Positions 22,013 through 22,338 of a stretch of 35,904 nt of DNA are shown here, piece by piece; the stretch's first letter is position 1; each line of letters begins with the position of its first letter. The notes under the pieces were generated by a model that worked only from the letters and a program-made list of their open reading frames with translations, was not told the origin of the DNA and ran no database searches. The stretch comes from Alphaproteobacteria bacterium (GTDB lineage Bacteria > Pseudomonadota > Alphaproteobacteria > Micavibrionales > SZUA-601): contig JANODM010000225.1 in the NCBI GenBank assembly GCA_031412695.1, forward strand, positions 1 to 35,904, in the 5' to 3' direction. The translations under genes and the position numbers were made by a program.

Positions 22013-22023
22013 TGGGTTCAAGA

Positions 22024-22235
22024 TTGTCCACAACCGCTTGCGTGTCGTAAAATCAACGCGTTAAATCGTAAAAGTTAACAATAATTTAATCATTACCGAA
22101 TTATCCGCATCTAAAAACAATGGGTTAAATGACGTGCCTTAAAAATAGGCAAATAGGTTGAATCGTTGGGATTCAACGGGGCTTTGGGTTCAAGGGCCTG
22201 TTACGCACAGACTTATCCACCGATTCTGGGGATAA
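22024..22235. promoter_or_regulatory. Cluster of four near-consensus DnaA boxes
   Basis: TTGTCCACA (22024-22032), TTATCCGCA (22101-22109), TTATCCACC (22213-22221), and tggggataa, which is TTATCCCCA on the minus strand (22227-22235). Each has one mismatch to TTATCCACA. Confidence 0.45.
22075..22089. promoter_or_regulatory. TTAA-N7-TTAA (CtrA-box-like) site
   Basis: TTAAcaataatTTAA, an exact match to the TTAA-N7-TTAA core, lying between DnaA boxes 1 and 2 in an AT-rich stretch. Confidence 0.35.
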
Positions 22236-22309
22236 TGGATTCGGATCAGGTTTATCAGGGGGTTACCGGAATGGGCCGTCTGAGAAGTTAGGCAGGACAG
22301 GAATTAATA

Positions 22310-22338
22310 TTGACATAATGTTGATTCCAAGGCATATT
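22310..22338 (+). promoter_or_regulatory. Candidate sigma-70 promoter
   Basis: TTGACA-N17-CATATT, about 30 nt upstream of the ATG at 22369. Confidence 0.35.

Follow-up and report, generated by a model that had tools for sequence, protein, structure and literature searches.

Of the DnaA-reactivating sequences (DARS) of Escherichia coli, DARS1 is located before uvrB and DARS2 before mutH (PMC11317965). The DnaA boxes I and II of DARS sites are opposed and 5 bp apart, spacings which are kept in the DARS candidates of other species, and Gln208 of E. coli DnaA is needed for the DARS-dependent release of ADP (PMC6868365). E. coli DnaA favors box pairs separated by 2-3 bp and represses uvrB via the DARS1 boxes (PMC11317965). 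DARS2 is made up of a core, an IHF site and Fis sites, and the E. coli locus datA of a DnaA-box cluster of ~200 bp with one essential IHF site (PMC11724364). Homologues of DARS2 were found described only for beta- and gammaproteobacteria near E. coli (PMC5742627). In the literature that we searched, reports of DARS in general were confined to E. coli and to beta- and gammaproteobacteria close to it; no alphaproteobacterial or uvrC-linked DARS was found there, and earlier candidate lists for other species may include such sites.

The window, which is the whole stretch of 35,904 nucleotides analyzed here, belongs to assembly G000, a fragmented MAG of 1.31 Mb in 284 contigs that is 77% complete and comes from an uncultured alphaproteobacterium, the relatives of which are labeled, among others, Micavibrio and, erroneously, Bdellovibrionales. 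A spacer of 717 bp separates the dnaJ stop codon from the uvrC start codon. The original prediction had described in this spacer four DnaA boxes with one mismatch each, the last two head-to-head with a gap of 5 bp, together with a perfect TTAA-N7-TTAA site, and all of these were confirmed at the positions listed in Table 1, as was the length of the spacer. The number of boxes expected by chance had been put at about 0.15, which agrees with the content of the assembly: 300 boxes with at most one mismatch were counted in G000 (0.228 per kb), corresponding to 0.16 per 717 bp and ~0.05 per 212 bp. At this density, four boxes in 212 bp are far above chance. The consensus TTATCCACA is a fair yardstick for such counts, since the DnaA encoded by this genome has a DNA-contact stretch, GGRDHTTVLHA, identical to that of E. 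coli.

The cluster between dnaJ and uvrC was the densest and the sole four-box cluster in the assembly. Two clusters of three boxes, on contigs C30 and C92, were set aside because both are within ORFs, and no DnaA boxes were found near dnaA on contig C116.

A fifth box (TTACGCACA), the IHF-like site and the dyad listed in Table 1 had been overlooked in the original prediction; the 8-bp hairpin that it reported is present, at 22157-22177 and not at 22156-22176. The complete module spans ~215 bp (22024-22235), and the box cluster is accompanied by an AT-rich stretch, with a GC content of 29% at 22061-22160. The neighboring genes dnaK, dnaJ, uvrC and queA share one direction.

The core of the module reads TTACGCACA-gac-TTATCCACC-gattc-TGGGGATAA (22201-22235). 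The DARS1 core of E. coli, as read from NC_000913, is TAATACACA-tgg-TTATCCACA-ggaat-AGTGGATAA. Boxes I and II of the window are thus opposed across 5 bp (22213-22235), as in DARS sites; box III is head-to-tail with box II at 3 bp, and the site is non-coding and distinct from oriC (see below). The order, orientation and spacing of the three boxes are exactly those of the DARS1 and DARS2 cores. Neither this box layout nor the link to uvrC had been recognized in the original prediction.

Table 1. Positions of the module, its component sites and its surroundings in the window.
Feature	Position	Strand	Remarks
dnaJ	20831-22012	+	upstream neighbor of the module in the window's genus only
Distal DnaA box TTGTCCACA	22024-22032	+	182 bp before the CACA of box III
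CtrA-type box TTAA-N7-TTAA, TTAAcaataatTTAA	22075-22089	.	at -131 from the core; conserved half-sites
DnaA-like box TTATCCGCA	22101-22109	+	degenerate or absent in most relatives
IHF-like site AAACAATGGGTTA	22115-22127	+	one mismatch to the consensus WATCAANNNNTTR; 91 bp before the core
Dyad TGCCT-TAAAAAT-AGGCAA	22135-22152	.	at -71 from the core
Inverted repeat GTTGAATC-N5-GATTCAAC with two GANTC sites	22157-22177	.	8-bp arms
Core box III TTACGCACA	22201-22209	+	two mismatches; 3 bp before box II
Core box II TTATCCACC	22213-22221	+	one mismatch in the window
5-bp spacer GATTC, a GANTC site	22222-22226	.	between box II and box I
Core box I TTATCCCCA	22227-22235	-	inverted, head-to-head with box II
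Lineage-specific insert	22236-22729	+	between the module and uvrC
Near-consensus promoter TTGACA-17-CATATT	22310-22338		within the insert
70-aa ORF	22369-22581		within the insert, behind the promoter-like site
TATAAT	22633-22638		within the insert
uvrC	22730-24616	+	Pfam GIY-YIG, UvrC RNase H and HhH domains; the gene that the module accompanies

The spacer had been called non-coding as a whole. This is uncertain for the 70-aa ORF, which stands behind a promoter-like site in the insert and for which no Pfam or NCBIfam match and no homologue in the congeners was found. No second copy of the insert was found in the genome, and scans of the window with Rfam (at gathering score) and for tRNAs yielded nothing. 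Further upstream in the window (12897-17570), eight minus-strand ORFs of ~150-230 aa without a Pfam match were observed.

Nine sequences from two genera were aligned: the four genomes of the window's genus, two from a sister genus and three relatives taken from metagenomes. The identity of DnaJ is only 76-78% among the four genomes of the genus. The block of ~215 bp was kept across all nine sequences while its surroundings drifted, and conservation ended directly 3' of the core. The pattern T.T.CACA of the distal box, the CACA of box III and both TTAA half-sites were invariant, the N7 between the half-sites being variable, and box II was a perfect TTATCCACA in eight of the nine sequences. The box at 22101 was poorly kept.

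The accessory sites were also maintained. The IHF consensus WATCAANNNNTTR was matched perfectly in G001, G003 and G009; in the dyad, TGC and GCAA were invariant and the inner pairs changed on both arms together; within the genus, the inverted repeat was kept as GAATC...GATTC. GANTC is depleted in the genome as a whole (2695 observed vs 5128 expected, observed/expected 0.53), whereas four copies are found within 80 bp at the module. A search for a CcrM-type methylase (PF01555) found none in the 77%-complete assembly.

The distance between the core and uvrC varied from genome to genome: 52-90 bp in G002, G003, G006, G007 and G009, 495 bp in the window, and 1.1-1.6 kb in G001 and two metagenome relatives. 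In four genomes, the window's included, the module was intact despite the insertion of 0.5-1.6 kb of unrelated DNA before uvrC, which speaks for a role beyond that of serving the uvrC promoter. In G009, TTAA-N7-TTAA, the IHF site, the dyad and GAATC precede the core in the same order, and the gene upstream from the module looks like uvrB, judged by eye from its C-terminal peptide.

Within the order, the presence of the module before uvrC is restricted to the window's family. No DnaA boxes were found upstream from uvrC in the other seven families, so the module is dispensable.

Related arrangements were observed beside photolyase genes in two genomes of the order, each in a spacer of 105-144 bp: a DARS-type core in G012 (L104, G012:C18:127656) and a head-to-head pair in G284 (L093, G284:C420:6015). 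No DnaA boxes were found before uvrC in these two genomes. DARS-type cores recur beside DNA-repair genes, namely uvrB, mutH, uvrC and phr.

The distribution of the core in the class was analyzed in 401 alphaproteobacterial genomes using a strict pattern, CACA-N3-TTATCCACA-N6-G-N-GGATA, with at most one mismatch. Matches were found in 160 genomes, representing 119 of the 295 genera, and nearly always once per genome; the reversed control pattern gave no match in any of the 401. About 40% of the sampled alphaproteobacterial genomes carry, mostly as one copy, an element whose core layout is exactly that of DARS and which has an IHF-like site at a fixed distance. When 30 of the loci were checked, uvrC was located directly 3' of the core and in the same orientation in 20, and no uvrC was present within 1.5 kb of the core in the remaining 10.

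The accessory sites were compared in 36 loci. The IHF consensus (at most one mismatch) was present at -91 to -93 in 22 of them, the dyad, as TGCCy-(A/T-rich)-rGGCAA, at -71 to -73 in 18, with matched changes in its arms, and the distal box at -175 to -205 in about half. A box at the offset of 22101 was not seen class-wide. The CtrA box is absent from the class-wide module and is an addition of the window's family.

Many of the order-level matches to a 23-bp pattern of the box pair were rejected, because they lie inside the coding sequence of ruvX and are not homologous sites. This palindromic pair, TTATCCACAGAnTCTGTGGATAA, was observed inside ruvX in L092, L094-L097, L103 and L105 (genomes of families f5 and f4 of the order), ruvX being identified by Pfam in L092 and L094 and presumed in the others, where an ORF of equal size has an equivalent position. 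The pair corresponds to the codons L-S-T-E-S-V-D in L092, and either coding constraint or DnaA binding may maintain it. The exact 23-mer TTATCCACAGATTCTGGGGATAA was found in ~360 places on E. coli plasmids under the annotation 'hypothetical protein' (e.g., NZ_CP027367.1:2639-2989), as well as on 92 metagenome contigs (L109 and ~40 other loci). The metagenome matches were set aside, except for three close relatives, as they form a mixed collection that includes plasmids and ranges in GC content from 0.32 to 0.76.

The assembly contains 16 TTAA-N7-TTAA sites, 13 of which are intergenic, where non-ORF DNA amounts to only ~10%. One site is located 87 bp before ctrA itself (G000 C206:3910), two tandem sites are found just before dnaN (C116:1340 and 1351), and another, at position 11891 of the window, lies 89 bp before a 1140-aa ORF (8380-11802, minus strand). 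Taken together, the sites look like a small CtrA regulon. The genome encodes a CtrA equivalog (421.8 bits on NF045991, cut-off 350), and the CtrA box of the module is probably genuine. The genes for both the alpha and the beta subunit of IHF are present; the IHF site itself is a predicted one.

Comparison with E. coli DnaA by BLASTP showed that Leu290, Phe239 and Lys243 are kept and that Gln208 is replaced by Tyr, so that the DnaA of this genome has no Gln at the position which matters for DARS in E. coli. No clear Hda or HdaA was found in the genome, the best candidate scoring 25 bits against a cut-off of 195, and for this reason the source of ADP-DnaA is unconfirmed.

Two readings of the spacer had been offered in the original prediction, a DnaA/CtrA-controlled region and a replication origin. 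The first is supported at the level of sequence: the sites are unchanged in two genera although the DNA separating them has diverged, genes for CtrA and for the two subunits of IHF are present, and the TTAA-N7-TTAA sites are mostly intergenic, one of them before ctrA. The second did not stand: the module is not oriC.

The GC-skew check which had been proposed along with the origin revealed no switch at the dnaJ-uvrC spacer in three congeneric genomes. The total skew left and right of the module was +0.039 and +0.028 in the window, +0.056 and +0.035 in G001 (with 46 kb to the right), and +0.097 and +0.113 in G002. The skew at third codon positions was dropped, as it is dominated by coding-strand bias, and so was the whole-genome skew of G000, which is in 284 contigs, 77% complete and not bimodal in its per-contig skew. 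Because of the coding-strand bias, the total skew and a complete relative were used instead.

In Alphaproteobacteria the classical origin is the spacer adjacent to hemE. The only complete genome of the family, G009 (1,649,955 bp, rebuilt from 83 stretches), has a cumulative skew in the form of a clean V. Its minimum, at 1,486,000, coincides with a 364-bp AT-rich spacer that contains three DnaA boxes and is located directly upstream from the true hemE; the skew there is -0.034 to the left and +0.060 to the right. This origin also contains GAATC-N5-GATTC. The one DARS-type core of G009 is found at 426,532, 82 bp before the uvrC ATG and ~590 kb from the origin, and the skew there is +0.024 to the left and +0.070 to the right, i.e., with no change of sign. 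Box clusters upstream from hemE are present in G004, G005, G007 and G008 as well, making five genomes of the family with G009. These results identify the hemE-adjacent spacer as the origin of the family.

In G000 the only URO-D gene of the assembly (C228:4319-5479) is a paralogue of hemE with 28-29% identity; it is packed in an operon right after an OmpR-type regulator. The genes that neighbor the origin in the relatives were sought in G000: their synteny was broken and the true hemE was missing. Among the four MAGs of the genus a true hemE was found in G001 only, where it is cut by the contig start, and the true hemE with its upstream spacer is unassembled in all four. Spacers such as the one described here mimic origins for motif-based origin finders and for human or machine readers alike, and should not be annotated as oriC.

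It could still be argued that in the window's genus oriC was relocated away from hemE to this spacer. We consider this highly improbable. In its favor, the DnaA-box cluster is the densest of the assembly and is accompanied by GANTC sites, one CtrA box, an IHF-like site and DNA with a GC content of 29%; GAATC-N5-GATTC is common to the module and the G009 origin, and with no true hemE spacer assembled in the four MAGs of the genus, no rival origin is demonstrable there. However, the window, G001 and G002 all show positive skew to either side of the module, in G009 the homologous module is far away from the skew minimum with its textbook hemE origin, box clusters are linked to hemE in five genomes of the family, G001 retains a true hemE, although cut off by the contig start, and the genes on both sides of the module are co-directional. 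That the block encodes a small RNA or acts as a leader RNA would explain its conservation, its non-coding nature and its two short dyads, but has practically no likelihood given that Rfam gave no match at gathering score and that RNAalifold returned nothing beyond these two local dyads (covariation term, -0.26 kcal/mol). Moreover, the conserved parts are TTAA half-sites and 9-mers that lack symmetry, between which the spacers are free to vary, a pattern of protein-binding DNA. The presence of DnaA boxes and of an IHF-like site at a fixed spacing also recalls E. coli datA, likewise a ~200-bp box cluster with an essential IHF site (PMC11724364). A datA-like site would titrate DnaA or stimulate the hydrolysis of DnaA-ATP and in this way inactivate DnaA; this is very unlikely here, since the opposed pair of boxes I and II with its 5-bp gap, followed at 3 bp by box III, defines DARS cores.

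A more serious alternative, though still a somewhat unlikely one, is that the module is only the regulatory region of uvrC, through which DnaA, CtrA and perhaps IHF would tie excision repair to replication and the cell cycle, leaving the nucleotide state of DnaA unaffected. It is in agreement with the position of the core 52-90 bp before uvrC in five relatives and with the uvrC gene downstream in 20 of 30 loci, with the similar cores beside the photolyase genes of G012 and G284, with the repression of uvrB by E. coli DnaA through the DARS1 boxes (PMC11317965), and with a DnaA that has no equivalent of Gln208. Against it, the module stayed intact in four genomes despite the 0.5-1.6 kb of DNA inserted, no uvrC is found at 1.5 kb or less from 10 of the 30 cores checked in the class, a head-to-head pair at exactly 5 bp joined by a third box 3 bp away is the signature of DARS rather than a usual operator, and for a single promoter a 215-bp array whose IHF site keeps a constant 91 bp would be large. 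The tight link to uvrC, and the link to photolyase genes in two genomes of the order, fit plain transcriptional control equally well.

We therefore favor, as fairly likely, the reading of 22024-22235 as a non-coding, DARS-like docking module for DnaA, IHF and CtrA which has been kept before uvrC in many Alphaproteobacteria. DnaA would bind to box II and recruit further DnaA to boxes I and III, and IHF would bend the DNA and so bring the DnaA bound to the distal box to the core. The head-to-head DnaA pair might then release ADP and rebind ATP, as at DARS; by analogy with the E. coli sites, such ADP release by the module is conceivable, if somewhat less likely than not. The DnaA complex may also, or instead, set the transcription of uvrC, and for control of uvrC by the module the chances seem about even. 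The two roles are not exclusive, as the example of DARS1 and uvrB in E. coli shows. In the window's family, CtrA could restrict either activity to the phase of the cell cycle in which CtrA is absent.

The most elaborate version of this docking-module reading, a working alphaproteobacterial DARS that uses IHF and a dyad-binding factor, is gated by CtrA and would reactivate DnaA at the G1-S transition upon clearance of CtrA, appears distinctly unlikely. The Tyr at the position of Gln208, the lack of a clear Hda and the absence of the module from many relatives count against full DARS function. If true, a CtrA-gated DARS would couple the nucleotide state of DnaA directly to the CtrA clock. The module also offers a defined DNA target for mutagenesis in model Alphaproteobacteria.

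When compared with known systems, the module resembles the Caulobacter origin Cori, adjacent to hemE, in that DnaA boxes are combined with TTAA-N7-TTAA, with GANTC sites and with an IHF site, a predicted one in the module. Cori has five CtrA boxes, against one in the module. Unlike a Cori-type origin, the module is found without a skew switch and without hemE, and G009 has both a hemE origin and the module, 590 kb apart.

With DARS2 (256 bp), located in the spacer between rppH/ygpD and mutH, the module shares the combination of a core with sites for IHF and for a further factor, both of them putative in the module, as well as an extent of ~200-260 bp and a position adjoining a DNA-repair gene. 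DARS2 is activated by Fis at FBS2-3, whereas in the module this place is taken by the TGCC...GGCAA dyad, and a CtrA box is found further upstream.

DARS1 (101 bp), in the bioD-uvrB spacer, differs from the module in that it needs no IHF, while in the module an IHF-like site stands at a constant 91 bp, together with the dyad, the distal box and, in the window's family, the CtrA box. The hosts differ as well, E. coli DnaA having Gln208 where the DnaA of this genome has Tyr, and the activity of the module is a putative one. In its arrangement the core is the same, with box III, 3 bp, box II, 5 bp and the inverted box I, and in both cases box II is the closest to the consensus. Both sites are located away from oriC and just upstream from a gene of nucleotide excision repair, which is uvrB in E. 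coli and uvrC here.
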